A stretch of 64,000 nt of DNA from an uncultured delta proteobacterium (lineage in GTDB: Bacteria > Myxococcota_A > Polyangia > Fen-1088): positions 1,056,001 through 1,120,000 of the forward strand of contig CAVTRY010000011.1 of NCBI GenBank assembly GCA_963737265.1, read 5' to 3'. The notes below the pieces were generated by a model. That model searched no databases. It was given only the letters and a program-made list of their open reading frames with translations, and was not told where the DNA came from. Both the position numbers and the translations under genes were made by a program. The stretch's first letter is position 1. Each line of letters begins with the position of its first letter. Shown here one piece after another: positions 3,379 to 17,635 of the stretch.

Positions 3379-3780
3379 TCACCAGATCGTATCGAGATCC
3401 GCGGCGCGGATCTTTCTGTCCCTGGTCACGAGAGGAAGACCCAGGTGGAGCGCTGTCGCTGCGATGATTCTGTCGGGCATGTCGGGGACGCTATCCCGGT
3501 CAACCCTTGCCACGGCGTCAGCCACGCCGCGGTCAATCGCCGCCAGCACGAGTCCCGACGCAGGATCGTCGATCAGGCTGGTCACGCGCGCTCTTGCAGC
3601 CTCGGGTAGACGCCCCTTCTCCACGAGGTAGGTCAACTCGATCAAGCTGACAGCCGGCACATGCAGCGGCTCACCCGCAGCAAGGGCGGCGTCGAGTCGA
3701 TTTCGCGCGGTAACCGAAAGGCGCGGCGAACCGAGCAGATACCAGACGAGTGCGTGGGTATCGACAACCATGCCTGCCAT
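3379..3780 (-). CDS. vapC: VapC PIN-domain toxin
   Basis: VVDTHALVWY, DMPDRIIAATA and LVTRD PIN acidic residues; coupled to upstream antitoxin. Confidence 0.9.
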   Translation of the reverse strand: MAGMVVDTHALVWYLLGSPRLSVTARNRLDAALAAGEPLHVPAVSLIELTYLVEKGRLPEAARARVTSLIDDPASGLVLAAIDRGVADAVARVDRDSVPDMPDRIIAATALHLGLPLVTRDRKIRAADLDTIW

Positions 3781-4004
3781 TAGAGATCCCGGCGTGGAAA
3801 TTCGGCCCAGGCCTCGCGCCTGGCTTGGTTGATGTCCTCGGCCGACAGATCGACGCCCAGATCAGCCAACGCGCCGGACAAGCTCTTGTGTGGCGTGCCC
3901 CGGCCCAAGCGAGTCTCGAGGAACTCGACGAAGTCCAGCACCTCGCGCTGCCCCTCTGGCGGCAGCGCCTTGGCTTTGGCCACAAGGATCTCCATGGTCG
4001 TCAT
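3780..4004 (-). CDS. Antitoxin (DUF2281-like) of VapBC pair
   Basis: 74 aa, ALPPEGQREVLDFVEFL; TAATG overlap with vapC. Confidence 0.8.
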   Translation of the reverse strand: MTTMEILVAKAKALPPEGQREVLDFVEFLETRLGRGTPHKSLSGALADLGVDLSAEDINQARREAWAEFPRRDL

Positions 4005-4088
4005 GCCCCTATGATACCCGAGCCGTGAGGAAGGAAAACCCCGAAGTCCGAAACCGCCCTCGGCCGGGGTTCGCCCATCCGTGCTAAC

Positions 4089-4988
4089 GTGCTTTGCAAT
4101 GACCTCCCACGCTTCATTGCCAAGGGCAGTCAGCTGGTGGATCCTGCCCGAGCGAGCCTGGCCCTTTGCCTTGCACTCGGCTGCGTATTCAATGTCGCGT
4201 GCGCATCCACGCTGCCGGCATACCCAGGCCCACGCAGGCCAACCCAGACAGTGGCTCGTCTGCACGCCCGAGACGTCGACATCGAGGAGGTCGATGGCTA
4301 CCGAGGAGGATGGACCGCCTCGGACTTCGAAATCGCCCCCGGAACGCATTCGGCTCTGGTGCGAATCGTGGGCAGACGGGAGCATGTGGCAGTCTCATCC
4401 GGGGTGTTGCGGGTCTGTTTCGTCTCCGAGGCGGGCCACACCTACGCGGTCATTCCCCGGATGGCCGCAACCGGTGTTGGGCAGGGGCCGTGGCTCCCCC
4501 GTATCGCGGATGAAACGGTGAATGCCTGGGTGCCATCGAAGTCCCTCAACGCCGAGGAGACCGCGTGCTCCGAGCAATCGATGGAGCCAGTCTTCCGTAT
4601 CGCCTGGCCCCTTGGGATCGGGAACATCCGTTCGAATGCGATGGAGCAACGGAAAGGCTACTTCCAACAGGTCAAAGCGCATGTCGAGCCGCAGTGGAGG
4701 CCCATCGAGGAGTATGCCCGAAGAAACCCCACTGATCCCGATCTGGGCATGCGCAAGTGGGCGACGGTGCTGCATGTCCAGTTGCGCGCCGACGGCTCGC
4801 TCATGAATGTGCAGATCGCGGTGCCGTCGGGCTCCCCTGTGCTGGACGAAATCGCTGTCTCTGCCGTGCAACAAGCCCAACCTTTCCCGGCACCATCCCC
4901 CGATCTGGTCAAGCCAACCGGCATGACGACCATCCCACTGGCCTTCGAAATCAACGGGGCTGGAAAGTCGGCGATGGCCAATCCATAG
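4089..4988 (+). CDS. TonB C-terminal domain protein, possible lipoprotein (start uncertain)
   Basis: C-terminal DGSL..V....SG...LDEIAVSAVQQAQPFPAP; hydrophobic stretch ending VAC. Confidence 0.65.
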   Translation: MLCNDLPRFIAKGSQLVDPARASLALCLALGCVFNVACASTLPAYPGPRRPTQTVARLHARDVDIEEVDGYRGGWTASDFEIAPGTHSALVRIVGRREHVAVSSGVLRVCFVSEAGHTYAVIPRMAATGVGQGPWLPRIADETVNAWVPSKSLNAEETACSEQSMEPVFRIAWPLGIGNIRSNAMEQRKGYFQQVKAHVEPQWRPIEEYARRNPTDPDLGMRKWATVLHVQLRADGSLMNVQIAVPSGSPVLDEIAVSAVQQAQPFPAPSPDLVKPTGMTTIPLAFEINGAGKSAMANP

Positions 4989-5693: not shown

Positions 5694-5987
5694 ATGAAAA
5701 CGAACCGCCAAAAGCACACAGCACTCTTCAAGGCGCAGGTAGCTCTCGAAGCCATGCGGGAGCAGGCAACGGTTGTGGAGATCGGGCGCCGATACAAGAT
5801 CAACCCGAACCTGGTTCACAAGTGGAAGAAGGAAGCCGTCACACGGCTGGCCATGGTTTTCGAACCAGGCCATGCAAATGCAGAGGAATCGGCGAACGCC
5901 GAACGCGAATCGGAATTGCTGCGCAAGGTGGGGCAGCTGACGCTGGAGAATGATTTTTTAGCACGCGGGCTCGCGCGCATTCGCTGA
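5694..5987 (+). CDS. IS3 transposase OrfA (HTH)
   Basis: FKAQVALEA..HTH..WKK; slippery TTTTTTA at about 5955. Confidence 0.9.
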   Translation: MKTNRQKHTALFKAQVALEAMREQATVVEIGRRYKINPNLVHKWKKEAVTRLAMVFEPGHANAEESANAERESELLRKVGQLTLENDFLARGLARIR

Positions 5988-6001
5988 CGGAGAAGCGCGC
6001 C

Positions 6002-6838
6002 ATGATCGAGCCCCACAACGACCTATCTGTCCGTCGGCAGTGCGAGCTGCTGAATCTTGCGAGATCGGGCATCTACTGGGAGCCGATGCCGATGGCAGAG
6101 GAAGATCTGGCCATCTGCAAGGAGCTGGACAAGCTGCATCTCGAATTGCCAGCATTCGGCAGCCGGAAGCTGTCACGGTTGCTAAAGGCACAGGGGCAGA
6201 CGGTGAATCGCAAACGGGTGCAGAGACTGATGCGAATCATGGGCATCGAAGCGCTGGCGCCCAAACCGCGGACGACCGTGCCCGCGCCGGAACATACGAA
6301 ATTCCCGTACTTGCTGCGCCATCTCGCGATCATTCGGCCCAATCAGGTGTGGGCCTCGGATATCACGTACATCCCGACGAGACAGGGGCATTGCTACCTG
6401 GTCGCCGTGATGGATTGGTACACGCGCCGGGTTCTGTCCTGGCGCATTTCAAACACGATGGACAGCCGTTTTTGCATCGAGGTCGTGGAAGAAGCTCTTG
6501 CGAACTTCGGCTTGCCGGAGATCTTCAACACCGACCAGGGGTCGCAGTTTACCGACGACAACTTCACATCGGTTTTGCTGGACAAGGGCGTAAAGGTCAG
6601 CATGGACGGTCGCGGCCGATTCATGGACAACATCTTCGTCGAGCGTCTATGGCGGTCTGTCAAATGCGAGGAGGTCTACTTGAACGACTACCGAGACGTG
6701 GCCGACGCCCGCAGTGGCATCGCGATCTACCTGGACAAGTACAACCACAGGCGGCCTCACCAAACCCTTGGATTTCAGACACCCGTAGCGTTTTACGAAT
6801 TCGAACTAAAGAAGTCGGCGATGAAAGAGGCCGCCTAA
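6002..6838 (+). CDS. IS3 transposase OrfB (DDE)
   Basis: WASDITY, NTDQGSQF and DNIFVERLWRSVK motifs; -1 frame relative to OrfA. Confidence 0.93.
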   Translation: MIEPHNDLSVRRQCELLNLARSGIYWEPMPMAEEDLAICKELDKLHLELPAFGSRKLSRLLKAQGQTVNRKRVQRLMRIMGIEALAPKPRTTVPAPEHTKFPYLLRHLAIIRPNQVWASDITYIPTRQGHCYLVAVMDWYTRRVLSWRISNTMDSRFCIEVVEEALANFGLPEIFNTDQGSQFTDDNFTSVLLDKGVKVSMDGRGRFMDNIFVERLWRSVKCEEVYLNDYRDVADARSGIAIYLDKYNHRRPHQTLGFQTPVAFYEFELKKSAMKEAA

Positions 6839-7346
6839 ATCGCCGCTGCATCATGCTGATGGCACGCTGCCCACAACTGCAACGCGTTCACCTGCTTCTG
6901 TGGGGCCGTGCGCGCATTGCATCCGTGGACAGCAGCCATCAGCATGCCTCCGCTCTCAACAATTTCCTTGCCGGCGAGGCTCACCCGGATCTACAAACAA
7001 ACCCACGCGGACTCTCTCTTAGCTCGGGCCATTTCTGGTCCTACCAAAGGGGTCCACTTCAGTCGCCATCGAGCGCGACAACCCGCGCCTCAAGGGCGTC
7101 CTGCCCAAAGAGTACGCCCGCCCCGGCCTCGACAAGCACCGCCTGGGCGAGCTCATCGACCTCATCGGCACCATCGGACTCGGCGACCGCGAGAACCGCG
7201 CCAAGGACATCCTGGGCCGTGCGTACGAATACTTCCTTACCCAGTTCGCCAGCGCCGAGGGCAAGAACGGCGGCCAGTTCTACACCCCGTCCTGTGTCGT
7301 GCGCTGCCTGGTCGCCATGCTCGCGCCATACAAGGGCCGAATCTAC

Positions 7347-7382
<36 letters not shown>

Positions 7383-7762
7383 TCCGAGAAGTTCGTGGAA
7401 GCCCACGGCGGCAAGCTGGGCGACATCAGCATCTACGGCCAAGAGAGCAACGCCACCACCCGCCGCCTGGCCGTGATGAACCTTGCCCTGCGTGGCATCG
7501 AAGCCGACTTCGGCCCCGAGCACGCCGACACCTTCCGCCGCGACCTGCACCCCGACCTGCGCGCCGACTACGTCCCGGCCAATCCGCCCTTCAACGACTC
7601 GGACTGGTTCCGCAAGGACGACGACGTGCGCTGGCAGTTCGGCAGCCCGCCCAAGGGCACCACCACGTCGGCGCGGAGGAAGTGGAAGATGATGGCGAGC
7701 CGTTTGGCGAGAAGATGGCGAGACTGGTAGCTGAGCTAAGCGGGCAATTCGCCGAGGGAGCC

Positions 7763-7973: not shown

Positions 7974-8035
7974 ACAGCAAACCCGCCGGGCCTCTATCGC
8001 AAGATATGCTCTCTCTCGGCGGGTGTTTCTTTTTC
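7974..8035 (+). ncRNA. Putative abiF-type leader/antitoxin RNA hairpin with U-tract
   Basis: ACCCGCCG (7981-7988) pairs with CGGCGGGT (8017-8024), followed by GTTTCTTTTT, directly upstream of the Abi gene. Confidence 0.6.
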
Positions 8036-8049
8036 AGGGTGAGGATGTC

Positions 8050-8967
8050 GTGAGGTTCACGAAGCCACCCCTGAGTGTCGAACAGCAGGTCGACCTCTTG
8101 CTGACTCGGGGAATACAAGGCGATCGCGGCGAAATGCTCCAGCGCCTGACCGCCGTCAGCTACTACCGCCTTAGCGGCTACTGGTTCCACCGCAAGCTGG
8201 CCGACAACACCTTTCAGCCCGGAACCCATTTCCAGGTGGTTTGGGACCAGTACGTCTTCGATCGCAAGCTGCGGATCGTGTTCATGGACGCTATCGAACG
8301 GATCGGGGTGGGTCTGCGGACGTTCCTATCGCTTCATCACGCCCATGCGCACGGTCCCTTCGGATACACAGATGACCCGGCCTCGCTTCCCAAGTTAGAT
8401 CCATCGAGACGTGCCGACCTTCTGAAACGCATCACCGATGAGGTGCAGCGAAACCGGAAGCGGGAGCTTTTCGTGAAGCACTTCTTCGACACCTACGGCG
8501 ACCACCACACCTTGCCGCCGATCTGGGTCGCCACCGAGGTGATGAGCTTGGGTTGCGTGCTCAGCCTTTGGCAGGCCACGACCAAGAAGGTGAAGAACGA
8601 AGTTGCCCGGATGTTCAAGGTCAGCGACGAGGTGTTGAAGACGTGGCTGTGGTCGCTAAACGAAGTTCGCAACATTTGCGCCCACCATGGTCGCCTGTGG
8701 AACCGCGATTTGGGGAACAAGCCGACCATTCCACACGCCAAGCATCATCCCGACTGGCATGCACCCGTCGCCATCCCCAACCACCGGGTCTTCGCTGTCT
8801 TGACGGTTTGCGCGCATTCGTTGACGCTGCTCGCGCCCCATAGCCATTGGCAACGTCGACTGCGGGGCTTGCTGAATCAGCATCCCAAGGTGCCCATCAA
8901 GAACATGGGCTTCCCAGAGAATTGGCTCGATTGTCCGATCTGGAAAGGTACCGCCGATGCTGCTTAG
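8050..8967 (+). CDS. Abi family (AbiD/AbiF, Abi_2) HEPN RNase
   Basis: KPPLSVEQQ, SYYRLSGY, YVFDRKLR, PPIWVATEVMSLG and HEPN RNICAHH motifs; GAGG RBS before GTG. Confidence 0.9.
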   Translation: MRFTKPPLSVEQQVDLLLTRGIQGDRGEMLQRLTAVSYYRLSGYWFHRKLADNTFQPGTHFQVVWDQYVFDRKLRIVFMDAIERIGVGLRTFLSLHHAHAHGPFGYTDDPASLPKLDPSRRADLLKRITDEVQRNRKRELFVKHFFDTYGDHHTLPPIWVATEVMSLGCVLSLWQATTKKVKNEVARMFKVSDEVLKTWLWSLNEVRNICAHHGRLWNRDLGNKPTIPHAKHHPDWHAPVAIPNHRVFAVLTVCAHSLTLLAPHSHWQRRLRGLLNQHPKVPIKNMGFPENWLDCPIWKGTADAA

Positions 8968-8968
8968 G

Positions 8969-9022
8969 AAGCTGGAGAAAGCCATCAAGGGGAATTTGAA
9001 AGGACTGGGGTATGGCGGATAA
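8969..9022 (+). repeat. hsdM 3'-end direct repeat, copy 2, containing the hsdS start
   Basis: Encodes [17 protein letters not shown]; hsdS ATG overlaps it. Confidence 0.9.
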
Positions 9023-10328
9023 GTGGACACGGGTTCGCGTTGACGAAATCGCGCAGCGGACGGCGACCGGTCCGTTTGGCTCTGCGATTAGCTCGAAGCA
9101 CTTTTGTGATTCCGGTGTTCCCGTCATTCGCGGCAGCAATCTGAGTCAGAAAACGGGCATTCGGTTGGTTGACGAGGGTTTGACGTTCGTCTCGGAGGAG
9201 AAGGCCAGGGAGTTCGCTCGCTCGGAAGCTCGGCCTGGGGACTTGGTATTCACTTGCTGGGGAACAATCGACCAAGTCGGACTCATCGACCGCCGCGCAC
9301 GCCACAAGCGCTACATCGTGTCGAACAAGCAAATGCTGTTCACCCCGGATGCGTCGCGGGCAGACAGCCTCTTTCTGTACTACACGTTCCGTTCACCGGA
9401 GAATCGTTCGGCGATACTGAACCAAGGAATTGGCAGCTCAGTTCCCGGTTTCAACCTGGGGCAGCTCCGCTCATTTGAGATCGACCTTCCGCCCCTCGCT
9501 GTACAGAAGGCAATCGCGGCGGTGCTTGGCGCGCTGGACGACAAGATCGAGTTGAACCGGCGGATGAACTCGACTCTGGATGCGATGGCGCGGGCGCTGT
9601 TCCAGAGCTGGTTCGTGGATTTCGATCCCGTCCGCGCCAAACTCGACGGCCGCAAACCCGAATGCCTCGACAAAGCCACCGCCGCCCTGTTCCCCGCCGC
9701 CTTCGAAGACTCCCCGCTGGGTCTCATCCCACGCGGTTGGGAAACGCGCAGCCTTGACAAGACCGCCAACTACCTGAACGGGCTCGCCCTCCAAAACTAT
9801 CCGGCGGGCGATGGCGATGATCTTCCCGTGATCAAGATTGCCCAGCTCCGCAAGGGCGACACCGATGGAGCAGACCGGTGCAGCGCCGACCTGTCACCCG
9901 AGTACATCGTTCAGGACGGCGATGTACTATTCTCGTGGTCGGGCAGCCTGGAGGTCCAGCTGTGGTGTGGCGGCCCAGGCGCGCTGAACCAGCACCTATT
10001 CAAGGTCACCTCGGCCGAGTTCCCGAAATGGTTCTGCTACCTCTGGACGTTGCACCACCTCGACGAGTTCCGCCTCATCGCAGCTGGCAAGGCGACTACC
10101 ATGGGGCACATCCAGCGCGGCCACTTGACAGCAGCCAAGGTCATCATTCCACCCCAGCCGTTGCTCAAAGCGATGACCCGCGTCTTAGCGCCGCTTGTCG
10201 ACCAAATCATCTCCAACCGCATCCAGTCGCGCACCCTCGCCACCCTGCGCGACACCCTGCTGCCAAAACTGCTGAGCGGGGAGCTGAGCGTAGACGGCCC
10301 GCGAGCCCTTCTTGAAGCGAACCCATGA
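9012..10328 (+). CDS. hsdS: Type I R-M specificity subunit
   Basis: Two TRDs; PPLAVQKAIAAVLGALDDKIELNRRMN and LATLRDTLLPKLLSGE conserved helices. Confidence 0.93.
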   Translation: MADKWTRVRVDEIAQRTATGPFGSAISSKHFCDSGVPVIRGSNLSQKTGIRLVDEGLTFVSEEKAREFARSEARPGDLVFTCWGTIDQVGLIDRRARHKRYIVSNKQMLFTPDASRADSLFLYYTFRSPENRSAILNQGIGSSVPGFNLGQLRSFEIDLPPLAVQKAIAAVLGALDDKIELNRRMNSTLDAMARALFQSWFVDFDPVRAKLDGRKPECLDKATAALFPAAFEDSPLGLIPRGWETRSLDKTANYLNGLALQNYPAGDGDDLPVIKIAQLRKGDTDGADRCSADLSPEYIVQDGDVLFSWSGSLEVQLWCGGPGALNQHLFKVTSAEFPKWFCYLWTLHHLDEFRLIAAGKATTMGHIQRGHLTAAKVIIPPQPLLKAMTRVLAPLVDQIISNRIQSRTLATLRDTLLPKLLSGELSVDGPRALLEANP

Positions 10329-10637
10329 ACGGCAACAAGCGCCTCCGAAGGGTCTTTTCTGTGAAGGAGGAACTCCTCAAGAAGTCCCGCGAGGCGGCGC
10401 TCGCTGCGGTGCAGATATTCAACAACCCAAACGTCACGTTCAAATCCGAGACGTACGTTATCCTCATGATTGTCTCGTGGACGTACCTCCTGCACGCTTA
10501 CTACCGGGGCCAAAGGATCGACTATCGCTACTACGCCCAGGGCGACAGACGAAGGCGATTCGACCGAACGAAGGGCGAGTATGCACTTCACAACACCAGC
10601 GGAAACCACAAAAACCTACACCTGACAGCCTGCTAGC

Positions 10638-10799
10638 CTAGCCCTTCGGCTTGGCCGGCGGCGGGTCGGCTGGCGTAGGCTCTTCCGGCCCCAGGGGCTT
10701 CGGTGGCTCGCCCCCGAGCACCTGCCCCATGATGCGGTCAAACTCGTCTGCCGGCATTCGTAGCTCCTCGTCCTTGCCCGTGGGCTTCTGTGGCTTCAC
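10638..10799 (-). CDS. 53-aa micro-ORF, last gene of the element operon
   Basis: GTG start overlaps the relE stop (GTGA); MKPQKPTGKDEELRMPADEFDRIMGQVLG, Pro-rich tail. Confidence 0.55.
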   Translation of the reverse strand: MKPQKPTGKDEELRMPADEFDRIMGQVLGGEPPKPLGPEEPTPADPPPAKPKG

Positions 10800-11068
10800 C
10801 TGTACACGTCCTTTCGGTGGTCGATGTCGAGCACGCATACGATCACGCCTCGCACGCAATAGAGAATTCGGTAGTCACCTGAGCGGATACGGTAGATCCG
10901 CTCCGCCCCGTCTGCCATGCCCTGTACGATCTTGGCAGTTGTTGGATGTGGATTGGCGGCGAGTTGCTGGATCTTGGTGACGATTTGCCGACGCGGCTTC
11001 TTGTCGAGCGTCTTGAGGTAGTCAAGGCAGCACCGCGCATAGGCAAAGCCGTAGTATGGAGATGGCAT
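10796..11068 (-). CDS. relE: RelE/StbE-family toxin
   Basis: 90 aa, basic; YRIRSGDYRILY and IDHRKDVYR signature; TGATG overlap with the R-M gene. Confidence 0.9.
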   Translation of the reverse strand: MPSPYYGFAYARCCLDYLKTLDKKPRRQIVTKIQQLAANPHPTTAKIVQGMADGAERIYRIRSGDYRILYCVRGVIVCVLDIDHRKDVYR

Positions 11069-13803
11069 CAGGAGAGTAGCTCATCTAGTTCCGCCTCTAG
11101 CTCCGCGCCCTGCACCATGCTGTCCTTATTCTTTCGAATGCCAGCAAGCCTCGATGCGGCGATGGCCGCGTCGCGCTCATCCTCGGTCAGCGAGGATTCG
11201 TCATCGTCGCCTTCTGGTTCGTCATGCAGTCCTTCTATCTGCTTCGTGAGGAGTGTTGCCCGGTTCCGAAGGGCGACCCTTGTCTCAATGATGTGCCTAG
11301 TTTCGTCAATGATGCGCTTGCGCTCCTTGTCAGACTTCGGCACAGCGACCTTCAACTCAAGGACGCGCTTGCCTAGTGTGTCGATAATGTCCTGTGTGAA
11401 CTGCTTGGAACGAATCTGCCTTTTCACAACAGAGGTGTTTAGGCACGCGAAAAGTAGCCATGGATCAATTATCTTTGGATCTTCGACACGCAACCGGAAA
11501 ATGTGACTCTGGAATAGCATCGGAAGGTCGCTTTCCGTCACCATTGCGCACGTGCCTATGAGGTAGGTGCCGTCGCGAACGATCAAGATGTCCCCAGCAC
11601 GCGCATCCGAGCCAGAAGCATACTCTCCGTATATCGCCCTGCTCACTCCATGCTTGAAATCGGCTCGAATTTCCCACCCAGAAAGGTCCGATGATCGGAT
11701 GAATGGTATTTTGCCGGTTCCATATGCCATCTTCCCTGGCTCGACTCCCGTGGAGAACGAAACGGCTCCAGCATCAACCAGCTCTCCGATCTGCATCAGT
11801 TCGTGCGTCTTCAACAGTGAAACGAGATAATGGTCCAATTCGGGATTGTAATACTTCGGGACAAAGATATTGTTGCGAATCTCATTGGATTTGATGAGGA
11901 ACCCTAGGTGATCCCACTGGTCAGGTGCTCGGCGATTCGTCGTGCGGAAGCGTTCGCCGATCACGGGTACATCATCCAACAGTTCCGATGGTCCGCCCTT
12001 GAGGTTCTTCCGGATAGTAGGGTTACCCCGGCTATCGTGGCCACACCACTTGGCGTCGGCCATGAAGATGTTGTATGGCTGCCTCGGCGGTGTCCCCTTC
12101 TTGAGAAGCATGACACACACCTTGGTGTGAGTTCCGCCTTTGCCGCTTGTCTTAAAAAGAGCTTCCGGCATCGTGACTACGGCACGGATGGTTGTCCGGG
12201 CGAGCAAGAATCCGATCACGTAGGCATAGGACGGATTGCCCAGGATGCTTTCTGGAAGCACGATGCCGACCGATCCGCCCTCTTTGGCCAACTGTAGGCA
12301 GCGCTCCAAAAACAGCAGTTGGGGGACCTGATCATCGCGCACGTCAGTCTTATCAAATTCCAGGTCGCCCCCGTCTGCATTCTCGCGCCATTTGTGGCCA
12401 AGGGCGTACTGCACCAGGGTTTCCTTGGTATCGATCTTGAGCTTCGCACCAAAGGGAGGATTCGCTACGACAACCTGAAAGGTTCCCAGCTTGATTGCGT
12501 GGCGCGGTACAGGGTCCCACTGGTCGTGTGGGAGTAGACTGTTCAGGGAGAAGACTCCGCCACGACCATCACCCATTATGGCCATGTATGCCTTCGTCAC
12601 CTTGGCAAGGAAGGAGTCCTTGTCGATTCCTCGGAAACACTGCGATGCTACGCGGATCTTCTTTTGCTCCAACTGCGAAGCTGACCATGCCTTGCGCTTT
12701 CCCTCAGCTTCCAGCTTCCGCCAGACGTTTTCCAGCGCACCAATCAGGAAGCCGCCCGAACCGCACGCTGGGTCTACTATCCAGTCCCCCGGCACGACAT
12801 CGATCATGTCCATGAGCATTTGGACCACGTTGCGAGGTGTAAAGAATTGGCCATCTGCTCCTCGCAGAGCGGGACCAATGAACGTCTCGAACGCGTCCCC
12901 TATGGCATCGCGGCTCGCCCTCGTGAGACAGTAGTTTTGCAGCTCTCCGACAACGTAGGCGACGCTTGGGGCATCAAGCGAAATACTTTCGTGCTCGTCG
13001 AAAACGTCCGCATACTCTGCTTTCACTTTATCATTGAAGATTTCGAGTATTCTTTCTTTGGTGTCGGCTGGTTCCTCGTCGATTCCAGTGTGGAATGACA
13101 CTGCCTCGTCCGGTTCGGTATTCAGTTCGTCGTATAGCTTGCAGAAGAGAATGTTGATGATCTCTTTTGCCACCGCTTCGTCGCGCGTGGTCCCCTGGGT
13201 CAACTGGGCCAGATGGTTGCGTATGTCGCGAAACACAGCTCGAATGTTCGACGGCGGAACCAAATCGCGACGCTTGAACAGTCCGACATCTTCAATGCGC
13301 TGGCCACGCCTAGGGATCGAAGAGATATTCTCATAGTTGCGTTTCCCGTTGCGAAAGACCTTGCGAATGTAGAGGTGCTCGTCGCCGTTGAACCACACTC
13401 CTATGTCGGCCGGCGACATGTCCAGGTAAAGCTTCAATTGAGCAAGGCCATCCTTGCTCGTCTTCTTTTTACACTCAACCACCATGAACAGGTGGTCTTC
13501 TATCTTCTCGGCGTCCTTAAAGACGGCGATGTCGACCGGATACGCCCTTGCCTCGTCCGACGGGCGACTGCGAACCCTGAACTGTGGCCGCGTCTGAATC
13601 TGCGCCTTGTGATAACCGAAATCCTCTACCAGTCTCCTGGCAAAGACCTGTACAGCTTCGTATTCTTCACGAGTAGCTCTGACGGGAAGCTCGCTGATGA
13701 AGTCAATGAGCGTCCCCTCGGCGGGAATTTCGCTCAATTCCGATCCTGCGGGATCGTTGGGTCCGCTTGATGGCGTTTCCTGTCGCTTGGCCAACTTTGC
13801 CAT
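11068..13803 (-). CDS. Single-chain restriction-modification enzyme (HsdR-N-like nuclease + N6-adenine MTase + one TRD; type IIG-like) with acidic antitoxin-like C-terminal tail
   Basis: PVDIAVF..VECKK..QLKLY nuclease; GQFFTP, DPACGSGGFL, NPPF; TRD IPFIRSSDL..GDILI. Confidence 0.88.
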   Translation of the reverse strand: MAKLAKRQETPSSGPNDPAGSELSEIPAEGTLIDFISELPVRATREEYEAVQVFARRLVEDFGYHKAQIQTRPQFRVRSRPSDEARAYPVDIAVFKDAEKIEDHLFMVVECKKKTSKDGLAQLKLYLDMSPADIGVWFNGDEHLYIRKVFRNGKRNYENISSIPRRGQRIEDVGLFKRRDLVPPSNIRAVFRDIRNHLAQLTQGTTRDEAVAKEIINILFCKLYDELNTEPDEAVSFHTGIDEEPADTKERILEIFNDKVKAEYADVFDEHESISLDAPSVAYVVGELQNYCLTRASRDAIGDAFETFIGPALRGADGQFFTPRNVVQMLMDMIDVVPGDWIVDPACGSGGFLIGALENVWRKLEAEGKRKAWSASQLEQKKIRVASQCFRGIDKDSFLAKVTKAYMAIMGDGRGGVFSLNSLLPHDQWDPVPRHAIKLGTFQVVVANPPFGAKLKIDTKETLVQYALGHKWRENADGGDLEFDKTDVRDDQVPQLLFLERCLQLAKEGGSVGIVLPESILGNPSYAYVIGFLLARTTIRAVVTMPEALFKTSGKGGTHTKVCVMLLKKGTPPRQPYNIFMADAKWCGHDSRGNPTIRKNLKGGPSELLDDVPVIGERFRTTNRRAPDQWDHLGFLIKSNEIRNNIFVPKYYNPELDHYLVSLLKTHELMQIGELVDAGAVSFSTGVEPGKMAYGTGKIPFIRSSDLSGWEIRADFKHGVSRAIYGEYASGSDARAGDILIVRDGTYLIGTCAMVTESDLPMLFQSHIFRLRVEDPKIIDPWLLFACLNTSVVKRQIRSKQFTQDIIDTLGKRVLELKVAVPKSDKERKRIIDETRHIIETRVALRNRATLLTKQIEGLHDEPEGDDDESSLTEDERDAAIAASRLAGIRKNKDSMVQGAELEAELDELLS

Positions 13804-13806
13804 GGT

Positions 13807-14775
13807 CTAGCTCGCCTTCCGTTGCGGAGAATGGAGCATGAGGCGCTTGCCTTCCATGCGGAGGATGCCGACCACGGTGCGCTCGCCGTCGGTCATCTTG
13901 CGGGTGTTGTACTTGTGGTCAAGCTCGGCGAAGTAGAGGTGCGTGTGCTTGTAGCTGATGCTGTGGTGGGTGCCGTCAATGCTGCGCTTGGAGTTTCCGA
14001 AGAAGCCCTCGGCGGTGTTCGTGGTCACGCGCACGCCATCTTCTGCCGTGCGCGCGTACTCCTCGATGCTGTGGTTGACGGTCTCGTGTGAAGAGAAGTC
14101 CTTGCCGACCTTTGTGTAGAGCGGGGATTCGTCGGTGTGCAGACTGGCTTCCTCGTTGACGTGTTCCTTCAAGAGCTTCGTGATCGCTTCGCCGGTCACG
14201 TGGTCGACCACGCGGGAGCGCACTCGGCCTCCGCGTTCAATGAGCGATACGACTGGCGTCTTGTTTCCCACGTAGCCCCGGCCTCGACCGCGCATCTTAC
14301 CACCCAGGTAGGTCTCGTCAGCTTCCACGATCCCGGTGAGCTGGTCCGACGGGAAGATGTCGGCGAGGGCGAAGCGGATGCGATGGCAGAGGAACAGGGC
14401 GCTGTGGTAGGAGCCAATCTCAAGCTGGCGTTGAAGCTGAAGCGCCGAGACCTGCGTCTTGCTCGCGCACATCATGTAGAAAGCGATCAGCCACTTGTTC
14501 AACGGAATGTGGCTGTCTTCCATGACCGTTCCGACGGTGACGGTGAAGGTGTCCTGGCACTCGGCGCACTTGTACATGCCCTGTCGGATCTTCGCGGCGC
14601 GGTTCGCGGTCAGCGCGTAGATCCTGAACTCATCGGCGTTTCCACAGTGCGGGCAGCTTCGGCCGTTGGCCCAGCGCACGCCCTCGAAGTACGCGCGCGC
14701 GGCTTCTTCCGTTGAGAAGCGAGCCATCACAGTCATCAGCGTGAGGTCGGAGCCGGTTGCGTTCTTCGTTGCCAT
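13807..14775 (-). CDS. IS1595-family (ISXO2-like) transposase
   Basis: Zn ribbon CPHC..CAEC, VEADETY, LHTDE, VNHS and TNTAEGFF motifs. Confidence 0.95.
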   Translation of the reverse strand: MATKNATGSDLTLMTVMARFSTEEAARAYFEGVRWANGRSCPHCGNADEFRIYALTANRAAKIRQGMYKCAECQDTFTVTVGTVMEDSHIPLNKWLIAFYMMCASKTQVSALQLQRQLEIGSYHSALFLCHRIRFALADIFPSDQLTGIVEADETYLGGKMRGRGRGYVGNKTPVVSLIERGGRVRSRVVDHVTGEAITKLLKEHVNEEASLHTDESPLYTKVGKDFSSHETVNHSIEEYARTAEDGVRVTTNTAEGFFGNSKRSIDGTHHSISYKHTHLYFAELDHKYNTRKMTDGERTVVGILRMEGKRLMLHSPQRKAS

Positions 14776-14781
14776 GATCTG

Positions 14782-14810
14782 AAGATAGTATGATCTGAAT
14801 TATGGCGCAA
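14782..14810 (-). promoter_or_regulatory. Putative leaderless promoter of the tnp-RM-relE operon
   Basis: TTGCGC-N17-TATCTT-N6-ATG. Confidence 0.6.
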
Positions 14811-14816
14811 CCAAAA

Positions 14817-15047
14817 TCAACCTGTGTCTGTCGATTCTGTAGGATGCGTTAAACGCACAGCAGCCTCAACCGCCCATCTGCGAACACAGACCGAGTGGTC
14901 TTGCTCAAGAAAACGAGCTGCTGCCAGGATGGTGGCGCGTTCTTCGTCGGTAAGCGTCACATGAATCGTGTTCTGCTTGCGCCGTGGGTTTGGGGTGCGC
15001 GGGCGACCACGGCGGCGTTGGCTTTGTTCTGGCTGGGTTGAGTCCAT
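14817..15047 (-). CDS. Small DNA-binding regulator (RRGRPR hook + ribbon-helix-helix-like)
   Basis: RRRGRPR then IHVTLTDEERATILAAA..SVCVRRWAVEAA. Confidence 0.65.
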   Translation of the reverse strand: MDSTQPEQSQRRRGRPRTPNPRRKQNTIHVTLTDEERATILAAARFLEQDHSVCVRRWAVEAAVRLTHPTESTDTG

Positions 15048-15053
15048 GCACAC

Positions 15054-15082
15054 AACCTACCAGCACACTAATTTAAGCGCAA
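15054..15082 (-). promoter_or_regulatory. Putative leaderless promoter of the regulator
   Basis: TTGCGC-N17-TAGGTT-N6-ATG with extended -10 TG. Confidence 0.6.
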
Positions 15083-15976
15083 CTAAATCATCCTAGGGTT
15101 TGACGTTCCGTGAACTAGGGCGTCACGTCGGGCGGTGTTGTGAAGTGCATACTCGCCGAACGAAGCATGGCGCCTTCAAGCACTGGGAGCTGGAGAGATG
15201 CCTCGATGAGAAGACCTGTCCGCTCCAGCGCGAGGTGGTTCAAAACCCGAAGTTCCTAACTGGACTCCGCCACGAAATCGAACACCAGATGACCACGCGT
15301 ATTGATGACCTTCTCAGTGCGCGTTTCCAAGCCTGCTGCATCAACTACCACGATGCCAGTGTGGCGCTCTTTGGCGAGGACCACGGCATCGCGAAGCACC
15401 TCGCTGTCAGCTTGCAGTTCGCATCTCTTGGTGCTGAGCAGATCGAGACCCTGGACCAACATCCGGGACTTCCGGGGTACGTAAGGCGATACATCGAGGG
15501 CTTCGATGGCGCACTGACTGCCGACGACTACACGAGCCCGAAGTTCGCCTACCGGGTCATCTTCGTCCCGAAGACGGTGAATCATCCGAGCCAGGCCGAC
15601 CAGGTCATCAAATTCGTCAAGGCTGACTCAGCGGTCGCCCAGCAAGTCAATGCCACCTACGCGGTCGTAAAGGAAACCGAGAAGCCCAAATGTCTTCCGT
15701 CGGAAATCGTCAGGAAGATGAAAGAGGAGGGTTTCCCTCGATTCGGCATGCACCAGCATACGGAACTCTGGAAAAGTATAGACGCCAAGGACATGGGCAA
15801 GGGCTTTGGCGTCTCCATCGGCAAGACCTGGTACTGGTACGACCCATGGCTGGATGAGGTTCGCAAGCATTGCAGGGACAAGAAGGAGAAGTACCAATGA
15901 CTTCAGGGTCCGGTGCGCGTGAAAGAACTTTGGCCTTCACCCTCAATTCCCTGGGCTTTACGAAGGAACTCGTGCC

Positions 15977-16297
15977 ATGAACCAGGCCGATTTTGAAGGA
16001 CTCCTGAACGACACGACCAAGCGCGTGATCGGCGATGTCACATGGGCGGTTGACGAGGACCGCTCGCCGGCCGTGGAGTTCCGCGTGGATCACAACCCCA
16101 CTTGCACGAACACCGGCGAGAAGCACAAGCACCGCTGGCGCAAGCCGGTGCGGGACAAGGAAGCGTACGTCCCTGATGACATCACCGCGCCACCGACCGA
16201 TCCTGTTTCCGTCTGGCGCCAGTTCTGCGCTGAGGCCAAGATTAACCACGACGGCGTCATGCACCCGCCGCCGCCAGTTCAGATGGAGCTGCTATGA
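15977..16297 (+). CDS. Hypothetical (DUF6978-like, HKH motif), possibly internally deleted
   Basis: HNP..GEKHKHRW..EAY..FC; ATGA-coupled to the DUF1828-like gene. Confidence 0.5.
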   Translation: MNQADFEGLLNDTTKRVIGDVTWAVDEDRSPAVEFRVDHNPTCTNTGEKHKHRWRKPVRDKEAYVPDDITAPPTDPVSVWRQFCAEAKINHDGVMHPPPPVQMELL

Positions 16298-17078
16298 GCC
16301 TAGCCGCTAGCGACATTCTCACCGACAAGTTGGGCCCGCTGTTTTCGTATGACCAGGTGAATGGCTTCACCCGGATACGGACGCCGTTCCTCTATCCGGA
16401 TGGCGACGTGATCGACCTCTTCCTTCAGGAGCAGTCCGGCTCGATGACAGTCACCGACTTGGGCGAGACCATGCGCTGGCTGCGCGGCCAGTGCATCTCT
16501 CCCCGTAGGTCGCCGAAGCAAAGAGCCTTGATCGAGGATGTCTGCCTGAATCATGGGATCGAGTTCTTCCGGGGCATGCTGGTCGCGCGGGTGAAGCCCG
16601 GCGACAACGTCGCGGCGGTCGTCATGCGTGCCGCGCAGGCGTGCCTTCGCGCGGCCGACGTGTGGTTCACCATGCGAACGCGGTCGGTGGAAAGTGTCAC
16701 CGACGAGGTGGAGGTCTTCCTGGGTTTGAACGCAGCCAGCCGTTGGTCGGTCGGTCGGGGAGGACCTGGCGACCCGACTTTCATACGCGCACGCCCAAAC
16801 GCAGCTCGCTGGTCTGCGTCCTGAGCACGGGTAGCAGGGCCGCGGCCAAGAACGTCACCGAACATGTGCTGGCCGCTTGGTACGACCTCAACGTCCTCGC
16901 GATTGGCCCCGAAGGTTTGCAGTTCGTCTCGCTGTTCGACGACACCATGGACGTCTGGAGTGACCAGGACTTCAACCTTCTGAAGGACATTTCCACCCTC
17001 ACGCGTTGGTCGCAGCCCGAGGGATTCATCGAAGCGTTGGCAGCCACCCCTATTGAAATGGCGGCTCGAACGACGTAG
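16294..17078 (+). pseudogene. DUF1828-like protein, frameshifted at about 16720
   Basis: IRTPFLYPDGDVIDLF..VTDLGET N-part; GRSGRTWRPDF C-part lies in another frame. Confidence 0.7.
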
Positions 17079-17083
17079 AGAAC

Positions 17084-17635
17084 ATGGAGCAGATGCGATC
17101 CCTGTCGCCGCCCGATATCGAGTCCGAGCTGAGCTATGCCTACCTGCACGCGGTGGCATCCAAGGCAGGTATGTCCTGTCGCTGTGGCAATCGGCATGAA
17201 GACAACAGCGGGACCGACGCCATCGTGACCGCGTGGTTGCCGCCCGTAGACCCCTCGACCCTGACGGAGGTGACCATCAACGTCCAGCTCAAGGCCACCG
17301 TCAAGAACCCCGGCGAGGATGGCGTGAACCTCTCGTATTTCCTCGGCGAACCCAAGCGCTACCACGATCTGCGCTCAGAGACGGTCGCCGTGCCGAGGAT
17401 TCTGGTGGTTCTGTTTCTGCCGCACGATGCCTCCGAGTGGCTGCATCATTCGCCTGAACAGCTCGCGCTCCGTCGCTGCGCCTACTGGGAGAGCCTCCGA
17501 GGAGCGCCGGAAATCACGACGACCTCTGGCACCACCGTCAAGCTGCCTAAGACTCACGTCTTTTCCCCTGAAGGGCTGACCCATCTCACTACACGTCTGT
17601 CGCGTAGGGACTTTCCTCGCTACGGTGTTGCATGA
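17084..17635 (+). CDS. DUF4365 PD-(D/E)xK-like protein
   Basis: LSYAYLHAVAS..D..GTD..VQLKAT..PRILVVL..CAYW. Confidence 0.8.
   Translation: MEQMRSLSPPDIESELSYAYLHAVASKAGMSCRCGNRHEDNSGTDAIVTAWLPPVDPSTLTEVTINVQLKATVKNPGEDGVNLSYFLGEPKRYHDLRSETVAVPRILVVLFLPHDASEWLHHSPEQLALRRCAYWESLRGAPEITTTSGTTVKLPKTHVFSPEGLTHLTTRLSRRDFPRYGVA

Follow-up and report, generated by a model that had tools for sequence, protein, structure and literature searches.

A probable IS1595-family transporter insertion sequence with a predicted single-chain restriction-modification enzyme and a RelE-type toxin gene in an uncultured delta proteobacterium

We analyzed a stretch of 64,000 nucleotides from an uncultured delta proteobacterium (contig CAVTRY010000011.1, positions 1,056,001 to 1,120,000; hereafter called the window), in which an earlier note had described an IS1595-family transposon with a complete defence operon between positions 10574 and 15157. 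The explanation that best accounts for the whole is very probably that this element is a "transporter IS" (tIS), an insertion sequence (IS) with passenger genes and a single transposase, which belongs to the IS1595 family and carries a predicted restriction-modification (R-M) enzyme and a RelE-type toxin. Pfam and NCBIfam profiles, the terminal repeats and an 8-bp target duplication agreed with each other in supporting the family and the passenger genes that the note had named. The borders of the element and the two parts of the interrupted gene are as follows.

10566..10573, no strand: target-site duplication, left copy, GAACGAAG, read directly and abutting the left repeat arm
10574..10597, no strand: terminal inverted repeat at the distal end, downstream of the genes, 24/24 complementary to 15134-15157
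15134..15157, no strand: terminal inverted repeat at the transposase-proximal end, 24/24 against 10574-10597 and, by eye, 21/24 identical to the left repeat of the relative L001 described below
15158..15165, no strand: target-site duplication, right copy, GAACGAAG, read directly and abutting the right repeat arm
10325..10573, plus strand: 5' part of a DUF3644 gene, 83 codons, ending with the left duplication copy (Pfam DUF3644, E = 1e-22, profile positions 1-57)
15166..15900, plus strand: 3' part of the DUF3644 gene (Pfam DUF3644, 1.2e-25, profile positions 62-180), aligning to residues 83-327 of the homologue P0246

The perfect 24-bp repeats and the 8-bp duplication reported in the note were confirmed at these positions, and so was the length of 4,584 bp between the outer repeat ends. 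When up to three mismatches were allowed, the window contained only these two matches to the 24-bp repeat, with none expected from 100 dinucleotide-preserving shuffles. The proposed precise interruption of DUF3644 was also borne out by the two profile segments, and removal of the element together with one duplication copy in silico joined 10325-10573 in frame to 15166-15900, which restored an open reading frame (ORF) of 327 aa. This ORF, which is a reconstruction of the empty site and not an observed allele, was 56.8% identical over 324 aa to the intact 327-aa homologue P0246, with which it was colinear and free of gaps at the junction. The GC content was 56.6% within the element compared to 62.1% in the rest of the window. 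Together with the perfect repeats, the undamaged duplication and the intact ORFs, this lower GC content is compatible with a recent arrival, as the note had supposed, and we consider the element to be a genuine, intact and probably recent IS1595 transporter IS. The three genes that carry this assignment are listed here.

13807..14775, minus strand: IS1595-family DDE transposase, 322 aa, identified by Pfam, NCBIfam and conserved residues
11068..13803, minus strand: predicted nuclease-methylase-specificity enzyme, 911 aa, with a PD-(D/E)XK nuclease, an N6-adenine methylase and one type-I-like target recognition region
10796..11068, minus strand: predicted RelE-type toxin, 90 aa, identified by Pfam ParE_toxin, a RelE fold model and 19 invariant residues

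The transposase matched the Pfam family DDE_Tnp_IS1595 (1.2e-33, 116.8 bits, cut-off 27), at its N-terminus Zn_ribbon_IS1595 (6.6e-13, 48.8 bits, cut-off 25.4), and the NCBIfam model transpos_IS1595 (173 bits, cut-off 75). In an alignment of 74 transposases, comprising 73 relatives and that of the window, the zinc-ribbon residues C41, C44, C70 and C73 and the catalytic residues D153, D215, N253, E256 and K263 were kept in at least 99% of the sequences. All features expected of an IS1595 member were present, namely a DDE domain with the D/D/N-E/K residues, an N-terminal zinc ribbon, the 24-bp repeats and the 8-bp duplication, and the R-M and RelE genes lie between the repeats of an IS with one transposase, as in a tIS. 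The packing of the genes is tight. The stop codon of the transposase gene (13809-13807) is followed after 3 nt, as the note had stated, by the R-M start at 13803, and the R-M stop and the RelE start overlap by one base (TGATG at 11070-11066). Spacing this close suggests that the three genes are co-transcribed. A terminator scan of the element gave no excess over shuffled sequences.

The 911-aa R-M protein contains the Pfam domains HSDR_N_2 (residues 52-164) and N6_Mtase (297-586), followed by a specificity region that was recognised by an NCBIfam MAD5/S-like match (641-842) and by the PADLOC model Specificity_I (663-857). Two further PADLOC models, MTase_II and REase_MTase_IIG, also matched. 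The nuclease residues D91, E110 and K112 (PD...ExK) and the methylase motifs DPAxGxGGFL and NPPF were invariant in 13/13 aligned sequences, including the protein encoded by L001. The closest solved relative by sequence was RM.BsaXI (3.7e-20). A fold search with the predicted structure gave BsaXI as well, with template modelling (TM) scores of 0.27-0.29; these are low and the model is poor (mean predicted local distance difference test, pLDDT, 63.6), so that the fold matches only back up the sequence result and the model does not allow the domains to be counted. The Type IIB enzymes BsaXI and BcgI and the Type IIG enzyme BpuSI, which was likewise matched, resemble the window enzyme in combining an N-terminal PD-(D/E)XK nuclease and, after it, an adenine methylase within a single chain, and in having a type-I-like specificity module. 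The window enzyme differs from them by its fused specificity part with one detected recognition region and by an extra C-terminal tail, and it is only about 20-22% identical to BsaXI. The hallmark of Type IIB enzymes is a bipartite site that is read by two recognition regions and cut on both sides; in the window enzyme, the NCBIfam and PADLOC profiles detected one specificity-like stretch. On the basis of its sequence, we regard as solid the prediction that this protein is a single-chain R-M enzyme, closest to BsaXI and BcgI.

A component of a MADS system was also considered for this protein and rejected, because the MAD2 score of 344 bits is far below the equivalog cut-off of 720. MAD5 reached 40 bits compared to a cut-off of 400, and no other ORF of the element matched the mad models.

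The protein encoded downstream of the R-M gene passed the cut-off of the Pfam family ParE_toxin (33.6 bits, cut-off 23) and stayed below that of the NCBIfam model RelE_StbE (20.8 bits, cut-off 27.9). Its predicted structure had a pLDDT of 87.2, and the top nine solved matches were all RelE proteins with TM scores of 0.66-0.75 (1wmi at 0.75, and 4fxe and 9g12 among the others), whereas ParE structures matched less well (0.52). Over 48 relatives with 57-91% identity, 19 residues were invariant and the mean column identity was 71%. The invariant residues indicate that the gene is under constraint. The structural model thus makes a solid case for a predicted toxin of the RelE branch of the RelE/ParE superfamily.

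According to the available excerpts of two sources, tIS have so far been restricted to the families IS1595 and IS66 (10.1101/2021.05.26.445724), and the concept is credited to Siguier, Gagnevin and Chandler 2009 (PMC3129680). The window element shares with IS1595 tIS one DDE transposase with a zinc ribbon, short inverted repeats, the 8-bp duplication and extra genes inside the repeats; what sets it apart is the cargo, in which the genes for a complete single-chain R-M enzyme and a RelE toxin form one tightly packed string. Within the family, ISfinder distinguishes subgroups with size ranges of their own, such as ISNwi1+ and ISNha5, and it treats as isoforms those elements that exceed 95% protein or 90% DNA identity to a named IS. 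Furuta, Abe and Kobayashi (2010) reported an R-M unit of Neisseria gonorrhoeae NCCP11945 with 26/26 inverted repeats and an 8-bp duplication in comparison to the empty site, whose ORFs, in the available part of the article, are a Type IIG R-M homologue, a homologue of Type I specificity (S) genes that is BcgI-like, and a gene with the transposase motif COG3677 (PMC2853133). As far as this part goes, that unit is the closest precedent for the window element, with which it shares the inverted repeats, the 8-bp duplication, a Type IIG R-M gene and a transposase-like gene. The motif COG3677 is presumably that of IS1/IS1595-type transposases. The gonococcal R-M gene differs in being truncated at its N-terminus, and its authors regarded the third gene as a likely inactivated derivative; in the available text they reported no toxin and made no assignment to IS1595. 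The novelty claimed in the earlier note was therefore overrated, since passenger-carrying IS1595 elements already form a class and a similar Type IIG R-M unit was described in 2010.

Two published links between toxins and other modules bear on the RelE gene. Lima-Mendez et al. (2020) described toxin-antitoxin pairs built into the transposition modules of Tn3 elements and proposed a "take me or die" stabilisation (PMC7157771, available part). As in those elements, the toxin gene of the window appears to be built into the transposition module instead of sitting with ordinary passengers, but the Tn3 transposase is of another family and, in the text available, the Tn3 elements carry complete pairs next to the resolution site, whereas the window element has the toxin gene only, at its far end and in start/stop overlap with the R-M gene. 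Wilbanks et al. (2022) reported, in the part available, R-M loci with orphan VapC or HicA toxins, drew an analogy to PrrC and proposed a fail-safe that acts when restriction is defeated (PMC9296519). As in PrrC-EcoprrI and these orphan toxin loci, an RNase toxin gene adjoins R-M genes without an antitoxin gene in the window; the differences are that the window toxin is RelE, that the R-M enzyme is a single chain and that the whole unit lies on a transposon. An IS1595 element with internal R-M and RelE genes was not found in the literature searched, with subscription papers and supplements outside its scope, and the available parts of PMC7371123, PMC5880901 and PMC10214660 mention IS1595 without internal R-M cargo.

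The kind of element is thus already known; what is new are a toxin that tracks the transposase, an R-M slot behind the transposase that recurs in another phylum, and the absence of an antitoxin gene together with a weakly supported candidate for its function in the R-M tail. Evidence for the first of these points came from a comparison of exact longest-contig sizes among 119 transposase, 119 RelE and 120 R-M relatives listed. The transposase and RelE lists shared at least 19 identical sizes, compared to none for transposase and R-M and one for RelE and R-M. As a control, sizes differing by 1-50 bases were counted for contigs of at least 4 kb, which gave a mean of 1.0 pair per offset versus the 19 matches. 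The number 19 is a lower bound, because the tables show only cluster representatives, and the zero overlap with R-M says little, because the R-M list holds the best 120 of 5,830. The shared contigs measured 4.2-10.5 kb in 12/19 cases, so that transposase and RelE lie within one short stretch on these 12; the others included contigs of 194,127 and 3,865,764 bp. In addition, the identities of the transposase and RelE relatives to the window proteins co-varied (r = 0.91). Since RelE co-occurs and co-diverges with the transposase in the relatives, it looks like a part of the element backbone rather than cargo. The note had counted R-M and toxin together as the load of the transposon; both genes do lie inside the repeats, but RelE does not behave like free cargo.

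Of the 119 contigs in the transposase list, 11 had a size of 4.00-4.25 kb, and the window element minus the segment of its first ORF (ORF1, see below) would measure about 4.2 kb. These sizes may indicate that transposase, R-M and RelE genes form a common unit. The contigs of the transposase, R-M and RelE relatives each pile up at about 3.5-4.4 kb, as would be expected if a multi-copy element of about 4 kb was assembled on its own.

Relatives of the transposase number in the thousands; those listed were 69-94% identical, one of them, at 71%, being named from a metagenome-assembled genome (MAG) of Terracidiphilus. A scan of a genome collection with the transposase gave at least 80 loci, among which L001 was the closest of those listed (69% identity) and the other 79 listed were at most 50% identical. 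L001 is a contig of 4,635 bp from a Planctomycetota MAG with the left repeat at 99-122 and the transposase gene at 131-1123. The left repeat ends 8 bp before the transposase ORF, which leaves no room for an ORF1-like gene. The last base of the transposase gene is also the first of a gene for a 659-aa protein with HSDR_N_2 and N6_Mtase domains, and an overlapping specificity gene of more than 519 aa runs off the contig. The R-M proteins of the window and of L001 are about 33-34% identical. The immediate succession of transposase and R-M genes in two phyla appears to mark a recurring cargo slot, which is a new point: the single-chain enzyme would occupy this slot in the window, and a split BcgI-like R-M and S pair would occupy it in L001.

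Repeats resembling those of the family were found beside the transposase gene in 47 of the 80 listed loci, and the remaining 33, among them L001 and further loci truncated by contig ends, were excluded from this analysis. In 44/47 relatives, the repeats matched at 20-24 of 24 positions and were flanked by an exact 8-bp duplication. The bounded elements were 2,012-6,411 bp long (median about 2.6 kb), so that each carries at least 1 kb of non-transposase DNA and none is a bare IS. With 4,584 bp, the window element is longer than 42 of them. Recognisable cargo of the 47 relatives included methylases and R-M fusions (L009, L047, L048), PIN toxins (L004, L022), DUF3800 proteins (L005, L035, L077), an AbiLi-like ATPase pair (L042), SocA/Panacea (L053), NYN (L063) and a Schlafen-like protein (L079). 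The PADLOC scan described below and the many cargo ORFs without a family weaken the case for this IS1595 clade as a dedicated vehicle for defence genes.

Four observations on the bounded relatives stand by themselves. L042 (9720-13574, 3,855 bp, with an 8-bp duplication) carries a two-gene system resembling AbiLi or PDC-M38, with an AAA_15 ATPase and a DUF3226 protein, and is a second clear defence case. In L073 (9942-16352), at 6,411 bp the largest bounded relative, a Mutator-family transposase (409 bits) lies inside the IS1595 repeats, which corresponds to a nested insertion or a composite. L079 (7825-11497, 3,671 bp) combines a Schlafen/AlbA_2 protein with HATPase_c_4, a ClpP-like protease and a Rap1a immunity-like protein, a combination for which we recognised no matching system. 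By eye, the 8-bp duplications of the 44 bounded relatives are mostly rich in A+T, unlike GAACGAAG of the window.

Two further ORFs and a pair of direct repeats lie within the element.

14817..15047, minus strand: ORF1, 76 aa when read from ATG and 78 aa when read from the GTG at 15053, with ribbon-helix-helix-like features and a basic arm at the N-terminus
10638..10859, minus strand: micro-ORF of doubtful coding status, 73 aa from TTG (other starts, ATG, at 10838 and 10757), with a proline-rich product
15062..15087, minus strand: leader repeat copy 1, upstream of ORF1, direct repeat with 14798-14823
14798..14823, minus strand: leader repeat copy 2, immediately before the start of the transposase gene and in overlap with the stop of ORF1, direct repeat with 15062-15087

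All ORFs listed for the element are on the minus strand, which agrees with the five co-oriented genes of the note, but family support was obtained for three of them only, namely the transposase, R-M and RelE genes. The statement that the genes other than transposase and R-M overlap was correct for the R-M and RelE genes and not for ORF1, whose stop at 14817 is separated by 41 nt from the transposase start at 14775. For ORF1, searches of Pfam (to E 10), NCBIfam and PADLOC gave no hidden Markov model (HMM) family. Its language-model features in Atlas resembled the NikA/MobC and CopG ribbon-helix-helix clusters (score 0.93, 174 shared features), a resemblance that counts as a lead only, and its third-position GC content was 0.53 compared to 0.65-0.84 in the sure genes. 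A ribbon-helix-helix DNA-binding protein is plausible. The micro-ORF had no family in Pfam, NCBIfam and PADLOC, its Atlas recognition of 2150 was below the mark of 2300, and its ten best Atlas matches had no family in common, so that this region may be subterminal non-coding DNA. The leader repeats were computed as 18 nt with 78% identity and extend by eye over about 25 nt. On the gene strand, the motif AGGnTGATTT..GTTGCGC..AATT precedes both ORF1 and the transposase start, with one copy at each place, and it could be an operator for a ribbon-helix-helix protein, a promoter element or a trace of the acquisition of ORF1.

Two alternatives question whether the element is mobile and whether its enzyme restricts DNA. 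A dead relic that is no longer able to move would agree with the presence of one copy only in the window, yet the 24-bp repeats and the duplication are both perfect, the catalytic and zinc-binding residues of the transposase are intact, and neither frameshifts nor internal stops occur in the transposase, R-M and RelE genes, which makes this alternative distinctly improbable. Similarly, the 911-aa protein might be a methyltransferase only, that is, an epigenetic or anti-restriction "self-protection" cargo without restriction, since databases call its relatives "N-6 DNA methylase" or "type I restriction enzyme M protein" and the matching NCBIfam model MAD2 is a methyltransferase model. The HSDR_N_2 nuclease domain, whose three residues D91, E110 and K112 are invariant down to the L001 protein at about 33% identity, and the position of the Type IIB restriction enzyme BsaXI as closest solved relative render this highly improbable. 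Against the preferred reading, a transporter IS with an R-M enzyme and a RelE toxin, several further observations have to be set beside the single copy. Promoter-like sites were not found in the element (0 compared to 1.9 expected from shuffles). Matching table values, and not sequence, underlie the association of the toxin with the transposase, and the large contigs do not show adjacency. With R-M proteins that are only about 34% identical, common descent of the cargo and independent capture are indistinguishable. The 129 non-transposase ORFs of the 47 relatives are mostly without a family, and in a PADLOC scan of the 56 longer ones only eight matched, in 7/47 elements. Finally, no separate antitoxin gene was found in the element by ORF list, Pfam and NCBIfam; a functional RelE without an antitoxin gene is unusual. 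The "complete defence operon" of the note is thus right for the R-M enzyme, which is complete, and not for the toxin.

With respect to the neutralisation of RelE, a further feature of the R-M protein is of interest.

11071..11226, minus strand: residues 860-911 at the C-terminus of the R-M protein (the tail), with two predicted helices behind an acidic linker, conserved in close relatives; candidate tethered antitoxin

The tail is conserved in five aligned relatives (P0127-P0131, 72-87% identity) and in the near-identical P0126, and it is missing from P0132 and from four inspected relatives of about 860 aa. Its helices (874-891 and 900-910) come from a low-confidence model. No match to the tail was found in Pfam and PDB sequences or when a tail profile was compared with solved structures, and Pfam searches to E 10 with the tail, ORF1 and the micro-ORF gave nothing but a chance-level match to PT-VENN. 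Prediction of a complex of RelE and the tail gave a score of 0.59, compared to 0.02 for the best of three controls, with a contact agreement of at least 88% between runs and a partner pLDDT of at least 68. Among solved complexes, 116 of 157 reach the pass mark of this method, as do 2 of 215 mismatched pairs; scores of 0.60 or less were obtained for only 18 of the 157 solved complexes and for both mismatches that passed, so the support is weak. Because RelE-RelB complexes have already been solved, the pass may also reflect likeness only. A masking of RelE by the R-M protein in the manner of PrrC is thereby weakly supported.

Three answers to the antitoxin question were weighed. The R-M enzyme itself might be the antitoxin, with a C-terminal tail of 45-50 residues that holds RelE as RelB does, RelE being the fixed backbone and the exchangeable R-M slot having to bring the tail; we consider this unlikely. 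ORF1 might instead be the antitoxin, so that the operon would be bracketed by an antitoxin-repressor at its start and the toxin at its end, and the pair would autoregulate the transposase and R-M genes. ORF1 resembles ribbon-helix-helix proteins, a fold used by antitoxins of the ParD and RelB classes; the leader motif is repeated before ORF1 and before the transposase gene, and an antitoxin in first position is the usual order. However, the predicted fold is followed by about eight residues only, too few for the C-terminal arm with which such antitoxins usually bind the toxin. In L001, the left repeat and the transposase gene are too close together to accommodate ORF1. In addition, no HMM family was found for ORF1, and its GC content by codon position is atypical. 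This arrangement is therefore rather improbable. RelE might also have no partner within the element: a chromosomal RelB-type antitoxin would neutralise it in trans, or it would be an inactive remnant, and R-M and RelE would then be ordinary passengers. Such a reading agrees with the lack of a separate antitoxin ORF, and orphan RNase toxins at R-M loci whose antitoxins are encoded elsewhere are reported in the available part of PMC9296519. We nevertheless find it doubtful: the conservation over 48 relatives (19 invariant columns, 71% mean column identity) argues against a remnant, and a RelE that tracks the transposase is hard to sustain if every new host must already supply the antitoxin.

Under the preferred reading of a transporter IS with R-M enzyme and RelE backbone, the transposase, R-M and RelE genes would be read as one transcript with translational coupling and their products made together. 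The R-M enzyme would methylate one adenine motif in the host and cut unmethylated incoming DNA, so that the host would gain a defence benefit and loss of the element would become costly. RelE would most likely act as an addiction or fail-safe module, and ORF1 would probably be a DNA-binding regulator specific to this lineage, with the repeated leader motif as its target. A complete restriction system could then move with a single IS transposase alone. If the R-M tail were the antitoxin, the restriction enzyme would be wired to a suicide RNase: the intact enzyme would keep the toxin silent, and loss of the element, or a phage that disables or degrades the enzyme, would free RelE. One small transposase-driven unit would in this case combine defence, abortive infection and addiction, and a backbone toxin held by the R-M protein would represent a new way to couple restriction, abortive infection and transposon addiction. 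The 44 bounded elements, whose cargo is mostly of unknown function and in some cases defensive, form a compact set for finding new defence genes.

No matches to the element DNA were obtained in plasmid and phage collections, and the plasmid-borne relatives of its proteins were too distant to provide context (transposase at most 46%, R-M below 50%, RelE about 35% identity). An Rfam scan of 9500-16500 gave no matches, and no tRNA genes were found in 1-30000. The neighbourhood of the element contains the following genes.

3379..3780, minus strand: PIN-domain toxin gene, directly after the DUF2281 ORF (domain match)
3780..4385, minus strand: 201-aa ORF with a DUF2281 stretch (domain match)
5954..6835: IS3-family transposase (NCBIfam, 260.7 bits)
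7023..7727: hsdM fragment, covering only profile positions 156-294 of 515
8023..8967: Abi_2 gene
9012..10328: hsdS gene
15977..17635: DUF6978, DUF1828 and DUF4365 genes, consecutive small genes that follow the split DUF3644 on its downstream side, with matches to unknown-function domains only

The IS3-family transposase lies just upstream of the hsdM fragment, and no hsdR was seen near the hsdM fragment and hsdS. Because of this IS3 element beside the hsdM fragment and the IS1595 insertion, the resident Type I locus (hsdM fragment, Abi_2, hsdS and DUF3644) seems to have been broken by two mobile elements. Judged by these genes, the element sits in a decaying defence island, which suggests that such elements land in existing defence islands and remodel them. 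Further upstream, the PIN and DUF2281 genes (3379-4385) are likely to form a VapBC-like toxin-antitoxin pair.

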